Part shown: piece by piece, positions 9,841-25,329 of the stretch | Position numbering within the stretch: the first letter of the stretch is position 1 | Layout of the letters: every line of letters starts with the position of its first letter | NCBI GenBank assembly: GCA_963815095.1 | Contig: CAWFFH010000003.1 | Location: 992,001-1,056,000 of the forward strand | Direction of reading: 5' to 3' | Length of the DNA: 64,000 nt | Origin: Candidatus Bathyarchaeota archaeon | GTDB taxonomy: Archaea > Thermoproteota > Bathyarchaeia > Bathyarchaeales > Bathycorpusculaceae | The notes under the pieces: generated by a model | What the model was told of the DNA's origin: nothing | Database searches by the model: none | What the model saw: the letters and a program-made list of their open reading frames with translations, nothing else | Made by a program: the position numbers and the translations under genes

Positions 9841-10131
9841 TTACTCTTTTGTAAGAGTAATTTCTATGGTTGAAACCATCCTGGACCTATTTTCGCCTTC
9901 GCGTGGTGGCATTTCTGCAGTGCCGATTGCGATCTTTGTCACTTTGAGGTCTTTTATGAAGCGGCTTCGTGTAATTTCTGCTACGTCAACTGCTGTGGTG
10001 ATTGCTTGTCCTCGGGCTTTTAGGGTAATTTCTTTACCTATGCCTGAAGAGAATGCGGTTATGATGGCGAGTACATAGCTCATTGGTGGTTTATTTCCGA
10101 CGAATATAACGTCACTAGCTTTTTCTGTCAT
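9841..10131 (-). CDS. albA: DNA/RNA-binding protein Alba
   Basis: IFVGNKPPMSYVLA, LKARGQAITTAVDVAE, VSTIEITL. Confidence 0.95.
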   Translation of the reverse strand: MTEKASDVIFVGNKPPMSYVLAIITAFSSGIGKEITLKARGQAITTAVDVAEITRSRFIKDLKVTKIAIGTAEMPPREGENRSRMVSTIEITLTKE

Positions 10132-13191: not shown

Positions 13192-13446
13192 ATGTCGTTC
13201 TACGTTTACATTCTGCTCTGTATGGATGGAAGCTTCTACACGGGTTACACCAAGGATTTGGATGAGCGGTTAAAGCAGCATGAAAACGGGAAAGGCGCAA
13301 AATACACCAAAGCTCATAAACCACAAAAAATCGCGTATGTGGAGCTTTTCGGTTCCAGAAGCAGCGCAATGAAGCGTGAGAGGGCAATAAAAAAGCTTAC
13401 CCACCAACAAAAGCGCGACTTAATTTGTTCTCAGAGCAAGAAATAA
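13192..13446 (+). CDS. GIY-YIG nuclease (UPF0213/YhbQ-like)
   Basis: YVYIL.C.DGS.YTGYT.DL..R..QH..GKGAKYT. Confidence 0.92.
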   Translation: MSFYVYILLCMDGSFYTGYTKDLDERLKQHENGKGAKYTKAHKPQKIAYVELFGSRSSAMKRERAIKKLTHQQKRDLICSQSKK

Positions 13447-13496: not shown

Positions 13497-14732
13497 TTAG
13501 ATGAGTAAAGTTAAGGCTGCACCAGTAATTATTGGAATCAGCACATTATCGTTTACTGGTAAAGGCAAGACTTCGATTGTCATGGCAATCGCTGCCCCAG
13601 CCAAAGCCAACCATGGCGAAACAAAGAATGTTCCAGCCAAAAACGCAAAGAAGAAACCAGCCAACGAACCTTCCCACGTCTTTCCTTTGTTAAATGGCAA
13701 GGAAGTGGAAATTAATCCTCCAAAAATCGAAGCTGCGCTGTCGCCTAAACAGAACATGGCAATCGCTGCTCCGGCTGCGTGAGTTGGAAACAAAAGTAAA
13801 GTCGTGACTATTCCAAAGGCAAAGTAAAGAGGTGATGCAGCAAAACCGTAAAGTTCAGACTGAGAAGCTGCATGACGCGTAATAGCTGAAACTAAAGTTA
13901 ATTCGCGCCCTTCTAAACGCCTAAGTTCGGAGACTGTATAGACGATGGCGATTAGGATGATTAATGCGGCGACAACAGGGACAGTGATTAACCCTGCAAT
14001 GACAGGCATAAAAAATCCTGCAGCATGAATGTCTTCTCTTACAAGATCATTTATCGACGGAAAAGATCGTTTATGCTTATCTCCGTCAATGACGTGTAAA
14101 ATGCTTGAAAGTTTACCATTAATTACTCTGTCAGCCTTGATGCGGAGTACAAAATCAGCGTTAAAACCAATTTTTAACACTTCAGGCGCGAAAATGCAAC
14201 GGTTGTTTCGGTCATCAGCGACAACCACGCAATCCTTTAGCTCCAAGTTTTCGGCGGCTAATATTTTGAGTAGAATTTTCAATTTCCCGGAAGGTTGAAT
14301 GGCGTCACCGTGTATCTGGCCTGTTAACTTTCCATCTTGGGTTTCAACGTCGATGCCGTAAGCGTATTCTGCACTTAAGCAATCGGCTAACTTTTTAACA
14401 ATGACTGTTGGTAACCCTGAACTAATTAAAGCAATCTTGCAGTTCCTCTTTTTTAGTTGATTAAAAATGCTTTTTAGAAAGGGCGTTGCAGGAATCTTGT
14501 CAAAGATGCACTCCAGGGTTTCAAGTTCTATGCCTTTTAGATTGCTGAAAACATGCTTTAATGCTGATTCGAGCTTTAAAATGCCTGCTTCATAAAGAAA
14601 ACCGAAGAAAAGAAGTTTAATTAGCTTAAATAACCCTAAAGTTTTGCCCAATTCAAAAATAAAGCGGTTTTTGGGGATGAGCACTCCTTCGACGTCGAAA
14701 ACTACAAGTCTGGGTTTTTCCGTTTGAGCCAT
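13497..14732 (-). CDS. HAD-IB phosphatase (SerB-like) fused to a SEC59/DGK1/VTE5-family CTP-dependent lipid kinase
   Basis: FDVEGVL, ISSG, ADDRNN at the N-terminus; TM region with GDSAAS, KTWEGS, DN.LIP. Confidence 0.8.
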   Translation of the reverse strand: MAQTEKPRLVVFDVEGVLIPKNRFIFELGKTLGLFKLIKLLFFGFLYEAGILKLESALKHVFSNLKGIELETLECIFDKIPATPFLKSIFNQLKKRNCKIALISSGLPTVIVKKLADCLSAEYAYGIDVETQDGKLTGQIHGDAIQPSGKLKILLKILAAENLELKDCVVVADDRNNRCIFAPEVLKIGFNADFVLRIKADRVINGKLSSILHVIDGDKHKRSFPSINDLVREDIHAAGFFMPVIAGLITVPVVAALIILIAIVYTVSELRRLEGRELTLVSAITRHAASQSELYGFAASPLYFAFGIVTTLLLFPTHAAGAAIAMFCLGDSAASIFGGLISTSLPFNKGKTWEGSLAGFFFAFLAGTFFVSPWLALAGAAIAMTIEVLPLPVNDNVLIPIITGAALTLLI

Positions 14733-14794: not shown

Positions 14795-16129
14795 TTATCC
14801 TGTCTGGGTACATTGGTGCTCTTTATTTTGTAGCTCTAAGGGACATCCGCCACCACAAACTTGCAGTTGGTCACAGTCCTTGCATTTTTCCTCTACAAAT
14901 TCTCTTTTTCTAAGTTTTTCTGCTATGGGATTGTGCCAAATCTTTTCCCAGGGTTCGGCTAAGATGTTTCCGAGGCTTTCGAAGTAGCTTTGGCAAGGGT
15001 AAACGTCGCCGTTTGGTCCAACGCAAGCGTTTATCATGGCTGCGGTGCAGCTTTTTACGCCTAAACCCAACTGCACTGGGTCAAATTGGCAGTACTGGGT
15101 TGGCGTGTACCAAAGGAACTTGAGGCCAATCAATTGGGCTTTGTCTCGGATTTGAGGCAAAAGAATCTTCAGATCTTCTACCGATAAAGCGAATTCTTCG
15201 CTTGCTTCTGGTGCTTTGCCTGAGTAGATAAGGCTGTTGCAGCCAAACGCGTCCACGCCAAGCCCTTTGATGTAATCGACGGTTGTTAAGAAGTCGGCTG
15301 CGTTATGTTTGCTCAACGTGGTGTTGGTTGAAACATAAATTTTTGATTGAACTGCATTTCGGATTCCCGCAATGGTTTCTTTCCAACTGCCCTTCGCGTC
15401 TGTCATTTTATCGTGAATCTGGGGCTTGTGGGATTCCAACGTTACCTGAACAAAATCTAAACCTGACTTCTCAAGCACATCCACAAACGCTTTATCCTTG
15501 AGCTTTCGCCCATTACTAATCAAACCCGTAACCATGCCTTTGTTTTGAGCGTACAAGAGCAGTTCAGGCAAATCTTCCCGCAAGGTGGGTTCGCCGCCTG
15601 TGAATGTTAAGATGAAGACGCCGATGTCGCTGAGCTTATCAATCACGCTTTTCCACTGTGCCGTTGTTAGTTCGGGGGTTTCGTGTGGTCCGCCAGCGTA
15701 GCAGTGGACGCAGTCGTTTTGGCACCTAAACGTCAAAGCTAAATCCATGCGAAGCGGCGCAGAATACTGGTAGCTAAAGGGCTCCATTTTTTCGATTTCA
15801 AGAAAGCTCACAGGGTCAATTTTCGCAGTCTGCGCAAGTGTACTTACCGTGTAAACAAGCTTCTCGTAATCGGCTTTGGCAGTTTCAGCACCAACGCGGT
15901 ACATTCCCCGGATTTTTTTAACTACATCTTTTTCGGGCAAGCCCTGCATAAAAAAGTAAGCTAATGCCGTTGCCGTTAGGTTCAGATGCAGGATTCTGTC
16001 GCCGTTAATCACCATAACGCCCTGTCCACTTGCTTCAACACGAAGCTGCAAGGACATCCCTGCGAACTTGTCCTCTCCGCGGTAACTGTATCTTCCAAAT
16101 GGGATGGTTTTTTTCTTAAAGAAACTCAT
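14795..16129 (-). CDS. Radical SAM/SPASM protein with N-terminal PqqD/RRE domain
   Basis: CQNDCVHC, GGEP, SPASM C..GDVYPC..CKDC..CGGGC; N-terminal LNLTA...AKADY RRE-like segment; start reassigned to ATG 16129. Confidence 0.9.
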   Translation of the reverse strand: MSFFKKKTIPFGRYSYRGEDKFAGMSLQLRVEASGQGVMVINGDRILHLNLTATALAYFFMQGLPEKDVVKKIRGMYRVGAETAKADYEKLVYTVSTLAQTAKIDPVSFLEIEKMEPFSYQYSAPLRMDLALTFRCQNDCVHCYAGGPHETPELTTAQWKSVIDKLSDIGVFILTFTGGEPTLREDLPELLLYAQNKGMVTGLISNGRKLKDKAFVDVLEKSGLDFVQVTLESHKPQIHDKMTDAKGSWKETIAGIRNAVQSKIYVSTNTTLSKHNAADFLTTVDYIKGLGVDAFGCNSLIYSGKAPEASEEFALSVEDLKILLPQIRDKAQLIGLKFLWYTPTQYCQFDPVQLGLGVKSCTAAMINACVGPNGDVYPCQSYFESLGNILAEPWEKIWHNPIAEKLRKREFVEEKCKDCDQLQVCGGGCPLELQNKEHQCTQTG

Positions 16130-16131
16130 AT

Positions 16132-17766
16132 TTAATGGCCTCCTCCGCCTGCACAGGCGCAAGCGCATGAAACGCAAGCGCAGGCACAGGCACATGCCGC
16201 ACACGCACAGACACAATCCGCCTTTGGATGAGCTGGATCATGAGACGCTTTTGGCGGCGCTGGAACGATAGCGTTGGCGAATTTTTCCATGCTACCAACT
16301 ATGTTGTTTGAGGTTTTTTCGACTGATGTGGCGATGTTGTTGGCGAAGTCTGCTCCTGGAATTTTTGGAGCCGGACCAGACTGCGTTGGTACGTTAACGT
16401 TTGGCGAATATGTTGGGTTTGGATGATATGTTGTATAACCGTACCACCACCAGAACCACAATGGATTAGGCTGAATATAGCCTGTCCTGAACACGGTTTC
16501 AGTTCGTGTCCGCTGGTTAGGGTCAAGCAAAAGCCAAAGCAGTTGCTCATCGTAAGCATTAGCAGCCAACTCAACTGTGCCAGCTTGTTCCACTTGAGTC
16601 CAAGCTTGAGCAGCGATTTTTCGGTAATAATCCACTGTGTCTTTTCGGCTGTAGCCCTGCAGCTTCTGTTCCACCGTGTCACGTAGGAACATAATTGTGT
16701 GTGCAAGTTTTTCCTCGTCGAGGCTGCCATCGGTTTTAAGTGAGTTCAAGAAATCGATCTCGTAATACCTCAGGGGGTCGTCTTTGGTGCCCGTTTTGTT
16801 TTCGAAAGGCGGCAATAATTTTAGTTTTAAGGAGGGTTTGGTTTCTTGCGCCCAGACCGCTCTTTTCTGTAAGAGGCTATAGAGAATTTCGGTAACTATC
16901 TGGGGCGGCTTCATGTCAAGGAGGTAAGAGGCTTCAACCGCGGTTAAGCCACGTTTAACGCCTAAGCTTTCCATGCCGACTTTCGGTGAAGTATAGCTGC
17001 TTTTGCTGAGTGCTCTAATTATTAAGGCGAAAATGGCAATTGCAAATAAAACCCCAACAACACCTACTATAATTCCATAAGAGCCCAGGCTGAATCCTCC
17101 CCCTCCCGAACTCGGAACGTAGTTGGGCAAAAACTTTGCTGGAAAAGAAACACCTACCAAAAACTGCTCATTTGGTTGGATGACGGGTTTTTCCCAGTAA
17201 ACCGTCAATTGCCCATTAACGGTGGAGGTGCCGTTATAGAAGTTCTGGGTAGTTTTCACATCAGCTACAGTGACATCGGGCGGCAAAACAATTTGGACAC
17301 GCACATCGTTGATGGCTGTGTCGGATATCCACTGGGGAATAAACTGCATCCCAAAGTTTCCAGAGTTCTGGGTGTCATTGCTTATCATGCCTGCAACGTT
17401 AGTTGTAACCGTGAACCAGACTGATTGTCCAGTGGTTAAGGGCTGGTTTAATGTGACATCAATTCGGTAGTCGCCTCCGCTGCTGGCGTCGACAACATTG
17501 AGCGAGTTGCCGTATTGATCTACTGCTTGGCCAGGTGTGAAGTCGCTTTTGGGTTGTCCAACGTAGAATCCGTGTAAGACCCCTGAGGTTACTGTTAGGG
17601 TTATGTTGTAGGTTAAGTCAATGGTGCCATCTTGGTTGATGAAGATTTGAGCCCACTCATGGTCAACTGTGTATGTCAAGCTTTGTGCGTTGACGCTGCT
17701 TGTCGCTGAAACTGTAACCGCCAAAATCAGCAGTAAAGCGAAAAGCAACGGAATTTTTTTTACCAT
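16132..17766 (-). CDS. Single-pass membrane protein (DUF2207-like ectodomain) with C-terminal Cys-Ala repeat tail
   Basis: Signal peptide, beta-rich ectodomain, TM near aa 230-252, cytoplasmic domain ending CVCACAACACACACVSCACACAGGGGH. Confidence 0.85.
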   Translation of the reverse strand: MVKKIPLLFALLLILAVTVSATSSVNAQSLTYTVDHEWAQIFINQDGTIDLTYNITLTVTSGVLHGFYVGQPKSDFTPGQAVDQYGNSLNVVDASSGGDYRIDVTLNQPLTTGQSVWFTVTTNVAGMISNDTQNSGNFGMQFIPQWISDTAINDVRVQIVLPPDVTVADVKTTQNFYNGTSTVNGQLTVYWEKPVIQPNEQFLVGVSFPAKFLPNYVPSSGGGGFSLGSYGIIVGVVGVLFAIAIFALIIRALSKSSYTSPKVGMESLGVKRGLTAVEASYLLDMKPPQIVTEILYSLLQKRAVWAQETKPSLKLKLLPPFENKTGTKDDPLRYYEIDFLNSLKTDGSLDEEKLAHTIMFLRDTVEQKLQGYSRKDTVDYYRKIAAQAWTQVEQAGTVELAANAYDEQLLWLLLDPNQRTRTETVFRTGYIQPNPLWFWWWYGYTTYHPNPTYSPNVNVPTQSGPAPKIPGADFANNIATSVEKTSNNIVGSMEKFANAIVPAPPKASHDPAHPKADCVCACAACACACACVSCACACAGGGGH

Positions 17767-18113
17767 TTTGGTTCCTCAGTAATCTCAAAAGTGGTACCGC
17801 AGTAAGGGCACTTAACGTATGGTACACCTGAAACAATCTTGATTTGGTCAGCGCTAATTGACCCGCCGCAGTTGGGGCATTTGATCTGCGCAGCCTTCAT
17901 TTGTCCTGAAACCTTCAGTTGCTGGATAACCGTTTTGGGTTTGCGGGTTGTGTAGTAGATTCCTACGATTATGGCTAAGCCAATTATGAAGAGTATGCCG
18001 CTTGTTGCAAGACGCGCTGATGTAGCTTGCACTGAAGCTGCGAGTGCAAAGATAATTGCAAGAAAGAACACAACTGCCGCGGCTATGCCGCCAAGGATGG
18101 GTAAGATTCTCAT
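17760..18113 (-). CDS. Membrane protein (2 TM) with C-terminal zinc ribbon
   Basis: CPNC...CPYC; overlaps the start of the next gene; ATG 18113 preferred (TTTAAAT TATA upstream); ORF is open to 18203. Confidence 0.8.
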   Translation of the reverse strand: MRILPILGGIAAAVVFFLAIIFALAASVQATSARLATSGILFIIGLAIIVGIYYTTRKPKTVIQQLKVSGQMKAAQIKCPNCGGSISADQIKIVSGVPYVKCPYCGTTFEITEEPKW

Positions 18114-18295
18114 AACTATTTTCTGTAAGGCTTGAAGATTTAAATCTAGTCCCTTTAGTTCAGCTGAAACGCTTGACTTGCCCTTAAGAGGTTGGGGCTT
18201 CAAATCAAGCCTGGATCAATTTAGGACCATAGGTTAGACAAAAACAAGTTTACCTGAAGGGGTTTGCAGAGGCTCTGCAGCGTGAATGCAAGCTT

Positions 18296-18389: not shown

Positions 18390-21197
18390 GTGTCTAAGAT
18401 GAATGGATCGTTAAAGAAGAGCAGGCTGATTGTGTATATCGCGTTTATTATTCTACCGCTCTTAATTTTCCCTGTCAATGCAAACTGGGTAATGTTCCGC
18501 GGGGACCTCTCCCGCAGCGGCGCCGTAGCAACCGACTGGACTCCCGGACAGGTTACGTGGAATTTCTCAACCGGTGACAAAGTTAGGTCCTCACCCGCCA
18601 TTTCAGACGGAATAGTCTACGTTAGCTCATACGACAACTATGTGTACGCACTTGATGGCGCAACTGGGGCTAAACTTTGGAGTTTTAAAACTGATGGCGA
18701 CGTTTATGCTTCTCCCGTCGTTGCTGATGGTGTAGTCTACATTGGGTCGCAAGACGAAAAATTATATGCCCTCAATAGCTCCACAGGCACCCAGATCTGG
18801 AGCAGAGCTTTCATCAACGGCTACCATACCTCCACCGCAGCGGTGGCGAATGGAGTTGTATACTTTGGCAGCGGCAACGGTACTATCTATGCGCTCAGCG
18901 TCTCGGATGGGTCGACGATTTGGAGTTTTAGAGTCAACTGTAACCCTTTCTCTTGTCCAGTCGTAGTCAATGGGGTTGTCTACATCGGCGCAATCGATGC
19001 CAGCTCGGGGCAAATGTATGCGCTGGACGCAGCCACAGGCGCCAAAATCTGGAATTTTTCAACAGCTACCCCGAACAATATGGTTTTTTCTTCGCCAGCA
19101 GTCGTTAACGGCGTGGTCTATTTCGGAGCCGATGACCGCAACGTTTACGCCCTAAACGCCGCAACGGGGGAGAAAATCTGGAGCTACTATACAGCTGCAC
19201 TGACCGAGTCATCCCCTGCAGTAGTTAACGGAGTCGTCTACATCGGTGCCAATAACGGCAACCTATATGCCCTAGACGCCTCATCAGGAGTCCAAATCTG
19301 GCACTTTTCCTCATTCAATTGCATAACCTCAAGCCCTGCAGTCCTTGATGGAGTAGTATACGTCGGCTCGTGGGACAACAACCTCTACGCAGTCAACGCT
19401 TCCAACGGCATCGAACTTTGGAGATATACAACAGGCGGCTCAATCTCCAGCTCACCAGCCGTGACAAAGGGAGGAGAAGTCTACATCGGATCCGATGACA
19501 CCCGCATATACTGTCTCAACACAAAAAGCGTTTCGCCATATTACCAAATAAATGGAGCCAGTGGATCAATCAACAGCGGAGGCATCAAACAGTTTATCAC
19601 GATTAATATCGATGGCACCATCACCCCCTCCACGACACCAATAGCCAGATATGGAAACCGATACACACTCACAGGCGACATCGGCGGCTCCATAAAAATT
19701 CTAAAAGATAACATAGTATTTGACGGCCAAGGTCACACAGTCTATGGAAATGGCTCAGCTAAAACCGGTGGCGACATAACCCTCAATCGCCGAGATCACG
19801 TTACAGTAATGAACACTGTCTTCACTGGGTGGTTCGGTACAGCCATAAGCGTGGGCTCAATGGATACAGTCGACCCCAACAATCAGACGGGCAGCAGCAA
19901 CTGCATAATCACCAACAACACAATAACAGGCGGAACCCCAAACTACTGTTTCTGCATCTGGGTCGAAGGCACCAACAACTCTATCACAAACAACCACATC
20001 TACGGCAACAACGGTATGGGTATAGCGCTTGAGAGAGGCACTAATCACCTAATTGCAAATAACCTAATTGAAAACAACGGAATGTACGCCATAAGTTTTG
20101 AATACGGTCAAGCCACAGTACGCGGCAACCATCTCAATAACAACACAGGCGGAGCATACTACTTCACCGATAGCCTCATGGGCATAATGACCCCCATACA
20201 GGATATCGACAGCTCCAACCTCGTAGACGGCAAACCAACCTATTACTGGGTAAACCAGCGCCACCAAACCATTCCAACCGACGCGGGAGTCGTGATTTTG
20301 ATTAACTGCAGCTACATCACTATAAGCGGGTTAAACATCGATAAGGGCGGAAAATACAACTCTTACAGCATCTTCCTCTCCGACACAACCAACTCCATAA
20401 TCAGCGACAACACCATCACAGCAGGCAACGGAATCAGAATACAACAAAACAAAATCTATGGCTCGAACGTCTCCGTCCTTAGAAACTACCTCACCACGGG
20501 CATGTGGACGGGCAGTAACACAACCATAGCCTCCAACGTCTTTGTAAGTAAGGGTATAATGCTGGGCGTTGATGTCGTAGTAGCTTACAACAACTTCACA
20601 GGCTGCGACGTCGCAATCAACATGGATAGCTACAACAGCACAATCCGAAACAACAACTTCCAGAACAACCAAGTAGTATTTCACATGTACGGAGGCGGCA
20701 ACAACCAAATCTACCATAACAACTTTATTTCCAACACCAAACAGGCGGAAGAGCAGCACTCTGACTCGTCACGCTGGCCAATAGACGGGTTCTATGCCTC
20801 AGTCAATAACACTTGGTACCAACCTTTACCGGTGGGCGGAAACTACTGGAGTGACTATAAAGGCAATGACTTAAACAACGACGGAATCGGCGACACACCA
20901 TACCACATAATTGAGAACTATACCGATCTTTATCCACTAATACAGCCCACAAATATTATTCAGCCCACCACGGAGAGTCTATTACCAGCAGAAACGGGGC
21001 AAATCCTAAGTCCAAATCCAACGGAAAAACCTGACCCATCCTCAACAAGTAATCTCCAAGTTAGCAGTGAACCGAACAAAACAAACTCACCCACTTCAGC
21101 TCTGCAATTACTTTGGGTGTTAGTGATACTAACAATTGTTGTTTTAACCACATTAGTTGCTTACCGCATATTCAAAAAGCGGCAAATGCCCAGCTAA
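18390..21197 (+). CDS. Cell-surface protein: PQQ-like/BamB beta-propeller repeats, NosD/CASH beta-helix, C-terminal TM anchor
   Basis: Repeated SSPAV.NGVVYIG...LYALDA.TG..IW units; GGNYWSDY..D.NNDGIGDTPY; S/T/P linker and TM. Confidence 0.9.
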   Translation: MSKMNGSLKKSRLIVYIAFIILPLLIFPVNANWVMFRGDLSRSGAVATDWTPGQVTWNFSTGDKVRSSPAISDGIVYVSSYDNYVYALDGATGAKLWSFKTDGDVYASPVVADGVVYIGSQDEKLYALNSSTGTQIWSRAFINGYHTSTAAVANGVVYFGSGNGTIYALSVSDGSTIWSFRVNCNPFSCPVVVNGVVYIGAIDASSGQMYALDAATGAKIWNFSTATPNNMVFSSPAVVNGVVYFGADDRNVYALNAATGEKIWSYYTAALTESSPAVVNGVVYIGANNGNLYALDASSGVQIWHFSSFNCITSSPAVLDGVVYVGSWDNNLYAVNASNGIELWRYTTGGSISSSPAVTKGGEVYIGSDDTRIYCLNTKSVSPYYQINGASGSINSGGIKQFITINIDGTITPSTTPIARYGNRYTLTGDIGGSIKILKDNIVFDGQGHTVYGNGSAKTGGDITLNRRDHVTVMNTVFTGWFGTAISVGSMDTVDPNNQTGSSNCIITNNTITGGTPNYCFCIWVEGTNNSITNNHIYGNNGMGIALERGTNHLIANNLIENNGMYAISFEYGQATVRGNHLNNNTGGAYYFTDSLMGIMTPIQDIDSSNLVDGKPTYYWVNQRHQTIPTDAGVVILINCSYITISGLNIDKGGKYNSYSIFLSDTTNSIISDNTITAGNGIRIQQNKIYGSNVSVLRNYLTTGMWTGSNTTIASNVFVSKGIMLGVDVVVAYNNFTGCDVAINMDSYNSTIRNNNFQNNQVVFHMYGGGNNQIYHNNFISNTKQAEEQHSDSSRWPIDGFYASVNNTWYQPLPVGGNYWSDYKGNDLNNDGIGDTPYHIIENYTDLYPLIQPTNIIQPTTESLLPAETGQILSPNPTEKPDPSSTSNLQVSSEPNKTNSPTSALQLLWVLVILTIVVLTTLVAYRIFKKRQMPS

Positions 21198-23066: not shown

Positions 23067-23804
23067 ATGGATAAAATAAGCAAGATTTTTGCAGTATTCA
23101 TTATTCTAATTATGGCTATCTCAAGCCTAAGCCTAATAATAGTTAAACCGGCAAATGCTCAAACAATCCCTACGCCATCCATACCTGAATTTAGCGTAAC
23201 TCATACTAGTTCATCTATTGAAGTTACAATTCTAAATCAGCCTTTCAGTCCACATCAAACTGCTGGCGGAACAGCTTTAAACTTATTTTATACTGTTAGG
23301 GTAAAGGAGCATTCAAGTGATAATTGGAACTACTATCCTCAATATCAAGGCAATTACCACCCAAATGGCAATTATCCTGCCACAAATTCTGATTATACAG
23401 TTATGCACTTTGAATTCAACGGTTCATCTAGCGGACCTTTAACCTTAAATCCGGTTTTAACTGGGAAGCAATATGATTTTCAAGTTCAAGCTGCCATAGG
23501 ATTCTATGTTACAGAACCCTATTTCCCACCTGGTCAAACATACCCTCCTTCCCCAGAAGGAACAGTTCAAGATTTTTCAGGATATTTCAGCGATTATAGT
23601 CCCACACAAACACTAACCATTGATGAAACCTCGCCATCAGTTTCACCTACTCCAACATCAATGCCCTCTCCAACTCCTACCCCAACACCAACCGTCCCAG
23701 AGTTTTCAGCATGGACAATTCCGTTGCTACTAACTATAGTCGTTGCATTAGCTGGTTTGCTTGTCTACCTAAAAAAACCCAAAGCACAAATCAATTTGAA
23801 ATAA
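23067..23804 (+). CDS. Secreted surface protein with PT linker and PEF-CTERM-like anchor
   Basis: Signal peptide, (PT)n linker, VPEF + TM + basic tail. Confidence 0.85.
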   Translation: MDKISKIFAVFIILIMAISSLSLIIVKPANAQTIPTPSIPEFSVTHTSSSIEVTILNQPFSPHQTAGGTALNLFYTVRVKEHSSDNWNYYPQYQGNYHPNGNYPATNSDYTVMHFEFNGSSSGPLTLNPVLTGKQYDFQVQAAIGFYVTEPYFPPGQTYPPSPEGTVQDFSGYFSDYSPTQTLTIDETSPSVSPTPTSMPSPTPTPTPTVPEFSAWTIPLLLTIVVALAGLLVYLKKPKAQINLK

Positions 23805-23892: not shown

Positions 23893-25329
23893 ATGCGTAG
23901 AGGCTTCATTTCAGTAATCGTTCTTCTTTTCATAATTTCTTTAACTATACTGCCGTCTGCCACCGTGAAAGCTCAATCCAAAACCATCATTGTCCCAGAT
24001 AATTATCCAACTATTCAAGCGGCTATTGATAATGCCAGTGCTGGTGATACGGTATTTGTGAGAAGTGGGACATACAACCAAAACATATCAATCGGCAAAT
24101 CCATTAATCTAATCGGGCAAAACTCTCAAACTACAAAATTGATAATGCCGCAATTTTACGTTTTCCATAATGGTCCTGCGGTTGCTCCACCACCTACCTA
24201 TGTTATTAACATTAATGCCAATGAAGTTACCATCAGCAATTTCACCGTTGAAAACCCCAACTATGGTGGAATTGGAATAAACTCTAACGGCGACGGAAAC
24301 CAAATAAACAGAATAAATTTTGATTCAGAAGAAATTGGCTTAATCGTAACCGGTTCTAATCAGTATATATCCAACAACCTAATTGCCAATGCAACACCTG
24401 GAATTCAAAGCAGCGGTTCATACAACCAAATTATCGACAATACAATTTCAAGCATCTCAGGTCAAATGTTCCTAAGTGGTTCAAATAACTTGTTTGCTGG
24501 AAACCAAATTACAGATAAAGCCTGGACTTTAATTTACTTGAAAAACGCATATTCTACCATCATGTATAATAATACTTTAAACAGGGCAGATATCGAACTG
24601 CAAAATTCTAATTCTAACATAATTTATAATAATACCCTAAACGGCGGCTATTTAGGAGTAGGTTATGACAAGTCACCGGCTTCAAGCAACCTTATAGCCA
24701 GAAACATAATAGAGAACACAAGGACTGATGGCGGAATAATCGTGTTTTCTGGGTCAAATAACGAGTTTTACGGGAACTTGGTTACCAGCAACAAAGTCGG
24801 ATTAGCTCTTGGTTTGACTGGAATTGGAGTGAATGAAAACAACGAGTACAACAATGTTTTCTTTTACAACATGTTTGTCAAAAACTCCGAGGGGAATGTG
24901 GTAAATCGGCAATTGGTCGATTCTAATTCTTTTGACAATGGGACGGTAGGCAATTATTGGGATGATTACTTAACTAAGTACCCTAACGCTACTGAGATAG
25001 ATAATTCTGCAATAGGAAATACACCCTACATTGTTCACAATAATGTAACGGATAATTACCCGCTAATGATGCCTTTTGACCTATCGAGTATAACCATTCA
25101 GTTTCCATCGTGGATAAATTCACTACCAAACTTGCGTACAACACCTACTTTTCCAACAATGACCACGCATAACACACAACCAAGCCCAACATCGACACCT
25201 TCTCCAACGCCCACAATTCCAGAGTTTTCTTGGTTAGCAATTTTACCCTTCCTCATTTCTATGCTTTTAGTTGAAGTGATACTCGGACATCGAAAATCGA
25301 CTTCATTGTGTAAGTTATCTATAAACTAA
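23893..25329 (+). CDS. NosD/right-handed beta-helix surface protein with PEF-CTERM-like anchor
   Basis: VPDNYPTIQAAI, Asn-rich repeats, GNYWDDY, IPEF + TM. Confidence 0.88.
   Translation: MRRGFISVIVLLFIISLTILPSATVKAQSKTIIVPDNYPTIQAAIDNASAGDTVFVRSGTYNQNISIGKSINLIGQNSQTTKLIMPQFYVFHNGPAVAPPPTYVININANEVTISNFTVENPNYGGIGINSNGDGNQINRINFDSEEIGLIVTGSNQYISNNLIANATPGIQSSGSYNQIIDNTISSISGQMFLSGSNNLFAGNQITDKAWTLIYLKNAYSTIMYNNTLNRADIELQNSNSNIIYNNTLNGGYLGVGYDKSPASSNLIARNIIENTRTDGGIIVFSGSNNEFYGNLVTSNKVGLALGLTGIGVNENNEYNNVFFYNMFVKNSEGNVVNRQLVDSNSFDNGTVGNYWDDYLTKYPNATEIDNSAIGNTPYIVHNNVTDNYPLMMPFDLSSITIQFPSWINSLPNLRTTPTFPTMTTHNTQPSPTSTPSPTPTIPEFSWLAILPFLISMLLVEVILGHRKSTSLCKLSIN

Follow-up and report, generated by a model that had tools for sequence, protein, structure and literature searches.

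Organization of the three-gene cassette

The stretch of DNA analysed here, hereafter the window, comprises 64,000 nucleotides (nt) of Candidatus Bathyarchaeota archaeon (assembly GCA_963815095.1, contig CAWFFH010000003.1, positions 992,001 to 1,056,000 of the forward strand). On its minus strand lies a cassette of three genes, the second of which encodes a membrane protein that ends in a tail of cysteines mostly alternating with alanines, and the third a radical S-adenosylmethionine (SAM) enzyme carrying a SPASM domain. Gene 1 (17760..18203) encodes a small membrane protein with two predicted transmembrane (TM) helices and a C-terminal CxxC...CxxC zinc ribbon, which was recognized by the MJ0042_CXXC model (23.5 bits, cut-off 20.9), the Pfam zinc-ribbon matches being sub-threshold. 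The true start of this gene may be an internal ATG (Met31, ~18113), since most homologs align only from residue 23-31 on. Gene 1 lies upstream of gene 2 and overlaps its start by 7 nt. Gene 2 (16132..17766) encodes the tail protein of 544 amino acids (aa), and gene 3 (14795..16129), coding for the 444-aa radical-SAM/SPASM enzyme, starts 2 nt past the stop codon of gene 2. A longer open reading frame (ORF) with a TTG start (14795..16216), overlapping the tail in another frame, was rejected as an ORF-calling artefact; the homologs begin at the ATG at 16129.

The Cys-Ala tail and the architecture of the tail protein

The tail protein contains ten cysteines (positions 518, 520, 522, 525, 527, 529, 531, 534, 536 and 538), after which it closes with AGGGGH. 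The Cys-Ala core (residues 518-539, 16150..16215) is organized in three blocks, CVCAC, CACACAC and CACAC(A), joined by the junctions AA and VS. An earlier note, made from the sequence alone, had reported that all cysteines of the protein fall within 21 residues at 16153-16215, that they are encoded by mixed TGT and TGC codons and that a Pro-rich spacer precedes them. Translation of the ORF and a script-based count bore out these observations: no cysteine was found outside residues 518-538, the block mapped to the same coordinates, both Cys codons were present along with mixed Ala codons (GCG, GCA, GCC and GCT), and residues 501-517 (16216..16266) formed a Pro-rich linker whose alignment columns are variable.

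Such a concentration of cysteines is exceptional for this genome. Considering 1383 ORFs of at least 200 aa, in which cysteine accounts for 1.13% of the residues, the expected number of 21-aa windows holding at least ten cysteines was 5.6e-9. The tail is the densest cysteine window of the genome, the runner-up holding six, and a six-frame scan of the whole 2.69 Mb revealed no second coding-looking Cys-Ala run. The tail-protein gene is present in a single copy, and a chance origin of its cysteine density is excluded.

The AlphaFold2 model of the tail protein (mean predicted local distance difference test score, pLDDT, of 81.6), together with Foldseek and Pfam, described a type-I membrane protein, in which a signal peptide (residues 1-27) is followed by a DUF2207/OST1-like beta-sandwich ectodomain (residues 31-209), a TM helix (residues 230-253, 17008..17079) and a cytoplasmic winged-helix and helical domain (residues 276-445). 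In Foldseek, the ectodomain matched ribophorin I/OST1 as well as the N-terminal domains of M1 aminopeptidases. An N-terminal beta-sandwich ectodomain, one TM helix and a cytoplasmic part are likewise found in DUF2207 (PF09972) and ribophorin I/OST1 proteins. The Pfam score for DUF2207 was 17.3 bits, below the gathering threshold of 24.4, and the modelled fold and layout are consistent with a DUF2207-like protein that is not a scored member of the family. Some close homologs have a precomputed PF09972 match, and RefSeq labels one Methanocella relative as oligosaccharyltransferase (OST) subunit 1.

The C-terminal half of the protein, including the tail, is predicted to be cytoplasmic, because a signal peptide is found at the N-terminus and the sequence after the TM helix is basic (RALSKSS...KVG...KRG), as the positive-inside rule would have it. 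Two conserved helices lie ahead of the Pro-rich linker (residues 471-488 and 493-500, 16267..16356), modelled with a pLDDT of about 75-82. From residue 506 on, the pLDDT drops below 50 in the linker and below 45 in the tail, which is predicted to be disordered.

The radical-SAM/SPASM enzyme

The product of gene 3 was assigned by the Pfam models Radical_SAM (83.2 bits) and SPASM (41.2 bits, cut-off 21.5). The CxxxCxxC motif of the SAM cluster (C136, C140 and C143; 15701..15724) is invariant among 78 aligned family members, in which C347, C361, C379, C416, C419, C425 and C429 are also invariant. The SPASM domain (residues 361-430, 14840..15049) displays the pattern C-x12-G-x4-C followed by C-x2-C-x5-C-x3-C, and it is expected to carry two auxiliary [4Fe-4S] clusters, as counted from this motif. 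In the AlphaFold2 model (mean pLDDT of 87.9), residues 12-100 (15830..16096) form four short strands and then three helices, resembling PqqD and the recognition element (RRE) of RiPP systems, in which ribosomally made peptides are modified after translation. The best full-length structural matches were the RRE-bearing maturases SkfB, SuiB and CteB, at 15-23% identity. When the family profile was compared with solved structures, SkfB was again the best match (2.2e-28), and the N-terminal part pointed to the lasso-peptide RRE protein TfuB1 (6jx3_B, E = 7.2e-4).

None of the NCBIfam cut-offs was reached by the enzyme among its 25 best matches listed, and the same was observed for a bacterial ortholog. 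An identity within the heme pathway (NirJ/Ahb) was rejected, as the scores lay far under the cut-offs and an RRE-like domain was present. A role in anti-phage defence was discarded as well, given that PADLOC revealed only a generic viperin similarity of the enzyme (68.5 bits) and no match for the two membrane proteins. A complex prediction that combined the enzyme with the tail-protein segment 455-544, three 4Fe-4S clusters and SAM scored 0.02 against a mark of 0.32, and carries no weight either way.

The earlier note had also read the end of the tail protein as a leader/core-like arrangement, with an amphipathic segment acting as an internal leader that binds the RRE. The layout agrees with the adjoining RRE-like enzyme, with the disordered tail and with the helices and Pro-rich linker that precede it. 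The amphipathic segment does lie upstream of the tail, within the helices 471-500, but it starts at residue 472 (~16353), slightly beyond the range that the note had covered. These helices are a candidate leader-like recognition element, to which the RRE-like domain might bind.

Conservation and family motif of the tail

Database searches recovered 1654 relatives of the tail protein, and the best 120 of them, spanning 75-99% identity, all presented essentially the same tail, 12 with nine tail cysteines instead of ten. A scan of species-representative genomes yielded 80 loci (53-98% identity), nearly all titled Bathyarchaeota or Bathyarchaeia and hereafter named Bathyarchaeia loci. The tail was readable and nearly identical in 76 of them, 71 with ten cysteines and five with nine, the first cysteine being replaced by Ser or Gly in the latter. 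The remaining four were unmatched by the tail pattern: one was shorter by one Cys-Ala unit, two were frameshifted and one lay at a contig end. Some relatives presented a His at the first junction. In 72 Bathyarchaeia loci, every tail codon occurred in two to four synonymous forms at a constant residue. These 72 loci had been chosen by a pattern in which most of the Cys and Ala are prescribed, and the fair count of conservation is 76/80.

The family motif was derived from a profile-free exhaustive search, which returned 549 cluster representatives of the tail protein, of which the 150 listed were used for the statistics. A Cys-Ala run was found at the end of 109 of these 150, the others being mostly fragments. 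The motif consists of (Cys-x)n-Cys blocks in which x is Ala in 581 of 613 instances and Val in 30, and between two blocks there are always exactly two residues other than Cys, namely AG (63), VS (55), AS (12), AA (5) or HA (3). Because the junctions always hold two residues, each of them shifts the phase of Cys and Ala in the sequence, and in a folded hairpin Cys may face Ala or Cys, depending on the turn type. In the family, the run terminates as ...CACACA-GGG, and three tail types were distinguished. The first is the form of the window, with three blocks and ten cysteines. The second, with two blocks, seven cysteines and a GGGR end, is bacterial and occurs, for example, in Candidatus Zymogenus saltonus, its Atlas clusters being mostly Chloroflexota. 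The third ends in GGGGCT and was found in Methanocella sp. CWC-04. Concerning a locus titled Methanocella sp. MAG113, the class sample of its genome gave only Bathyarchaeia-type tails.

In an alignment of 97 sequences at 24-88% identity, the invariant columns corresponded to one Pro and to tail positions. The tail is the most conserved part of the superfamily, above the rest of the protein, it is kept down to 24% overall identity, and its family spans archaea and bacteria. The alignment of homolog tails, which the earlier note had proposed as a check, revealed that the Cys spacing is conserved, as are the upstream PG..FA (residues 470-475) and F496. The two outcomes that the note had named as fatal, a tail not conserved in homologs and a simple nucleotide-repeat expansion, were thus not what was found: the tail is conserved more strongly than the remainder of the protein, and its codons vary synonymously under constant residues. 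Judged by its sequences, the Cys-Ala tail is the hallmark of a large unnamed archaeal and bacterial family.

Genetic linkage and translational coupling

The zinc-ribbon, tail and radical-SAM genes occurred together in 79 of the 80 Bathyarchaeia loci; the enzyme was missing once and the zinc-ribbon gene was missing in another locus, both at contig ends. A zinc-ribbon homolog was directly upstream of the tail gene in 79/80 Bathyarchaeia loci and in 61/80 loci of the bacterial type. The trio was also present in all eight of a further set of more distant loci (38-74% identity). A phylogenetic profile of the phylum, in which 401 genomes were sampled and an ortholog threshold of E <= 1e-50 was applied to the enzyme, found the tail gene in 22 genomes, the enzyme in 21 and both in 20, where they were always adjacent. 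The two tail-only genomes presented partial tail matches, and one genome was enzyme-only. No enzyme ortholog at this threshold was found in the other tail-less genomes of the 401, in which other radical-SAM candidates were present. The cassette genes are accessory, and within the window's own genus the cassette was identified in three of ten other genomes. In one genome of the same family (G013:C55:49923-51881), the tail and radical-SAM genes were both interrupted by stop codons, which could reflect joint decay or assembly errors.

For the bacterial-type tail (seven cysteines, GGGR), 80 loci were obtained from a metagenome scan, and 58 of them had at least 1300 nt of downstream DNA. Among these 58, a full-length homolog of the enzyme (41-49% identity) was encoded within 1 kb in 46 and elsewhere in the locus in five, and seven had an intact tail and no radical-SAM gene within the retrieved DNA. 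A second, more divergent paralog of the enzyme was detected in 36/80 bacterial-type loci, the window having no such copy. In one of them (L151, 9051..11050), the second paralog, placed after the main enzyme, passed the Pfam PqqD threshold (29.8 bits) and presented a partial Radical_SAM match and no SPASM; a class-I methyltransferase gene came next, and neither gene is found in the window. Tandem tail-bearing paralogs were observed in some bacterial-type loci (L142 3950..7551, L118 3818..7827 and L106 1..2319), and L097, L106 and L118 shared a downstream ORF with a conserved C-terminal end. A search with residues 455-544 returned 385 shorter matches; most of the 120 listed came from contigs no longer than a few kb or were labelled partial, so that they look like fragments, and no sign of a free-standing short precursor peptide was found among them.

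The junction between the tail gene and the enzyme gene also carries a putative translation signal. The last codons of the tail gene, encoding GGGGH and followed by the TAA stop (16132..16149), include the Gly codons GGC GGA GGA GGC, within which lies a candidate Shine-Dalgarno sequence, GGAGGAGG (16146..16139, minus strand). It contains GGAGG and is placed 9 nt ahead of the enzyme ATG. The second Gly codon was GGA in 68 of the 72 loci described above, versus 26% of the 1959 other Gly codons in the same genes. From this spacing and this codon bias, the Gly codons of the tail gene seem to have a second function besides coding, serving as the site where ribosomes bind to translate the enzyme.

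Relation to known systems

No description of this cassette was found in the literature searched, and none of the three proteins is named as part of a system by a model of Pfam, NCBIfam or PADLOC. NCBIfam holds a CXXX-repeat target system (TIGR04117 and its maturase), which is said to couple a tail of Cys repeats to a radical-SAM/SPASM maturase, with a period of four versus two here; neither of these models was among the NCBIfam matches listed. In the papers found, no title or abstract tied DUF2207 to either a Cys-Ala tail or radical-SAM enzymes.

A close parallel is found in Methanococcus voltae, in which CrpC, an RRE/radical-SAM/SPASM enzyme (TIGR04463), is described as forming thioethers on the 28.8-kDa Cys-rich protein CrpA (PMC13692751). 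In both cases, an archaeal gene for a radical-SAM/SPASM enzyme with an RRE or, here, an RRE-like domain adjoins that of a full-size Cys-rich protein whose C-terminal Cys motifs are the target, modified in CrpA and proposed here, no protease or exporter is evident, and a link to metals is suspected. However, CrpA, as described there, is soluble and contains ten repeats of a 17-residue motif, with acceptors of the form C-x-x-Q/D, whereas the protein of the window is a membrane protein of 544 aa that has one tail, of 27 residues and period two. With only 1.8% Cys, it would fail the cysteine-content filter given in that paper. TIGR04463 was absent among the 25 best NCBIfam matches listed for the enzyme. 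The main text and two supplement files of PMC13692751 mention neither DUF2207, nor Bathyarchaeia, nor this cassette, and its larger data set could list relatives.

The enzyme shares the order of RRE (RRE-like here), radical-SAM core and SPASM/twitch domain, as well as the pairing with a Cys-rich substrate, putative in our case, with SkfB (PDB 6efn), CteB (5why/5wgg) and the StsB-type enzymes as these are presented in PMC10288494, but the substrates described there are short peptides, made of leader and core, which undergo cleavage and export. Another parallel is provided by the TIGR04222 membrane proteins, whose C-terminal tails of Ser, Gly and Cys are proposed substrates of MNIO enzymes (PMC12452194). 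They have in common with the present family a low-complexity, Cys-bearing C-terminal tail on a membrane protein and a gene placed beside that of a Cys-modifying enzyme, presumed as such in our case. In the account of that paper, the partner is a non-haem iron oxidase and the tails are predicted to be periplasmic, whereas here a radical-SAM enzyme and a predicted cytoplasmic tail are involved. Weak TIGR04222 matches were detected in the domain past the TM helix of two of six relatives, one bacterial-type and one Methanocella-type (21.6 and 31.4 bits, cut-off 43), and the tail protein of the window had no TIGR04222 match in NCBIfam.

Proposed modification of the tail and alternative explanations

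These results altogether suggest that the Cys-Ala tail is probably the substrate of the radical-SAM/SPASM enzyme encoded 2 nt downstream. The argument combines the linkage of the two genes, their translational coupling and the architecture of the enzyme with a tail that is unique and predicted to be disordered, and with the conserved residues between its cysteines. The near-constant occupancy of these positions by Ala or Val is as expected if those residues join the reaction. As for the chemistry, the formation of thioether crosslinks is the best guess, to which we would give somewhat less than an even chance. It is favoured by analogy because the nearest characterised enzymes include the thioether formers SkfB and CteB, and because the action of CrpC on CrpA, the sole tested case of a large Cys-rich archaeal protein, gave thioethers (PMC13692751).

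In such a process, the three genes would be translated as a coupled unit, in agreement with the overlap observed between genes 1 and 2 and with the ribosome-binding sequence seen inside the Gly codons of the tail. The enzyme would dock via its N-terminal RRE-like domain on the cytoplasmic part of the membrane protein, perhaps on the helices 471-500, and the flexible tail would enter the active site. By analogy with SkfB, CteB and CrpC, the SAM cluster would then make a 5'-deoxyadenosyl radical, which would abstract hydrogen from an Ala, Val, Ser or Gly residue nearby. The Cys sulfur, held by an auxiliary cluster, would close the thioether, and the cycle would be repeated along the Cys-Ala blocks. 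The product could, speculatively, be a rigid structure rich in sulfur, perhaps able to bind metal, on the inner side of the membrane. It is conceivable, although the chances lean against it, that the tail becomes a ladder of small thioether rings, or some other sulfur-rich structure, on the full-length membrane protein, which would amount to a new protein-derived cofactor or metal site.

Several points weigh against a modification of the tail by this enzyme. The evidence for it is entirely genomic or modelled. The Pfam PqqD model was sub-threshold on the enzyme (E = 0.02, 15.6 bits versus 23.4), and the highest NCBIfam scores were those of NirJ2, AhbC and AhbD (143-130 bits; NirJ2, 143.2 versus 500), above those of the peptide maturases (StsB, 83.5 versus 625; SkfB, 91.8 versus 300). 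As acceptor sites, Ala residues offer only a primary C-beta hydrogen or the C-alpha hydrogen. The seven bacterial-type loci with an intact tail and no radical-SAM gene in the retrieved DNA also count here, and so does the period-2 Cys-x-Cys spacing, which has no counterpart among the thioether precursors described in PMC13692751 and PMC10288494. Lastly, the conserved three-gene cassette includes no protease, exporter or transporter. Since neither protease nor exporter is encoded, the cassette would not be a conventional RiPP system; instead of the short precursor with a cleavable leader that characterizes sactipeptides and ranthipeptides, it presents a 544-aa membrane protein.

The same linkage evidence would apply equally if the enzyme acted on the tail by a chemistry other than thioether formation, such as the epimerisation of alternate residues, generating a D/L-alternating strand, the oxidation of Cys into formylglycine or dehydro residues, or new C-C or C-S chemistry. 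The diversity of the SPASM family speaks for it, as SuiB, which forms a C-C link, PqqE, anSME and EpeE are among the structural matches of the enzyme, and the thioether precursors presented in PMC13692751 and PMC10288494 show no such strict alternation with Ala. We consider it unlikely, however, because the top match in both sequence and structure is the thioether-forming SkfB, and because thioethers are what PMC13692751 reports on the Cys-rich targets of RRE/SPASM enzymes described to date. A different possibility, of which the metal and Fe-S forms had been named in the earlier note, is that the tail stays unmodified and serves as a metal-thiolate or Fe-S site, similarly to metallothioneins, or as a sulfur or electron relay, the enzyme acting elsewhere or using the tail as a partner for cluster, sulfur or electron transfer. 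Ten thiols in 21 residues with C-x-C spacing, the His at the first junction of some relatives and the tails kept in loci where no enzyme gene is near all agree with it; kindred ideas have been put forward for the TIGR04222 Cys-tailed membrane proteins and the copper-binding bufferins in PMC12452194, and CrpA is reported in PMC13692751 to be induced on pyrite. Nevertheless, a site made of thiols only would not need the residues between the cysteines to be as conserved as the cysteines themselves, and their near-exclusive identity as Ala fits a plain metallothionein-like site poorly, as far as sequence can tell. Moreover, an enzyme with a putative peptide-docking domain accompanies the tail gene in 20 of the 22 genomes, and this enzyme has three cluster motifs of its own. 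An unmodified tail therefore appears doubtful. A metal or Fe-S function, whether or not the tail is modified first, is possible by analogy.

As the cysteines of this membrane protein cluster on what is predicted to be its cytoplasmic side, they could also suggest lipidation (S-acylation) or the carriage of persulfide or polysulfide, which would tether or load the C-terminus at the membrane; a polysulfur or lipidation site had been among the alternatives of the earlier note. This is highly improbable, considering that the conserved cassette encodes neither acyltransferase nor sulfurtransferase and that the invariant Ala and the block-and-junction layout would be left unexplained. As to a meaningless low-complexity or nucleotide-repeat expansion, for which only the repetitive look of the tail speaks, its probability is practically nil: the synonymous variation of all tail codons in 72 loci at constant residues, and the retention of the tail at 24% overall identity across archaea and bacteria, have already refuted it.

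Returning to the enzyme-substrate relationship, the finding is read as a RiPP-type radical-SAM modification applied to a whole protein. To our knowledge, very few examples of such chemistry on whole proteins have been tested, QhpC and now CrpA. Here, a cassette that is widespread and tightly conserved points to a membrane protein that receives such chemistry on its cytoplasmic tail, whose motif resembles that of no characterised substrate. If the thioether ladder were real, such a site would lie on the inner side of the membrane and would have been kept in anaerobes ranging from Bathyarchaeia and Methanocella to Chloroflexota. It would also represent a new substrate logic for radical-SAM/SPASM enzymes, in which Cys-Ala blocks of period two are linked by junctions of two residues. 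With 27 residues, one enzyme and a clear mass-spectrometric read-out, the target is well delimited and easy to test. Solving the chemistry of the tail would allow a function to be assigned to a large radical-SAM subfamily that has no name, as well as to one branch of the DUF2207-like proteins, and could reveal a new crosslink or metal-binding structure of anaerobic archaea and bacteria.

Other genes in the window

Downstream of the radical-SAM gene, at a distance of 62 nt, a 411-aa fusion of a HAD hydrolase with a multi-TM C-terminal part is encoded on the minus strand (13497..14732). This gene is kept there in 59/80 Bathyarchaeia loci, which may simply be conserved synteny. On the other side of the cassette, a divergently oriented gene (18390..21197, plus strand) encodes a secreted protein of 935 aa with a PQQ-type beta-propeller, right-handed beta-helix/NosD domains and a C-terminal TM helix. 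It is probably unrelated to the cassette, because it was found beside it in only one of 80 related loci; a NosD-annotated neighbour is mentioned for CrpA too in PMC13692751.

Two further secreted proteins are encoded on the plus strand (23067..23804 and 23893..25329), both ending with a Thr/Pro-rich linker, the sequence PEFS, a hydrophobic helix and basic residues. These ends resemble, by eye, an archaeal sorting signal of the PEF-CTERM type, and the second protein has NosD/beta-helix domains. The window also encodes a stand-alone GIY-YIG domain protein of 84 aa (13192..13446, plus strand) and what looks by eye like an Alba-like chromatin protein (9841..10131, minus strand).

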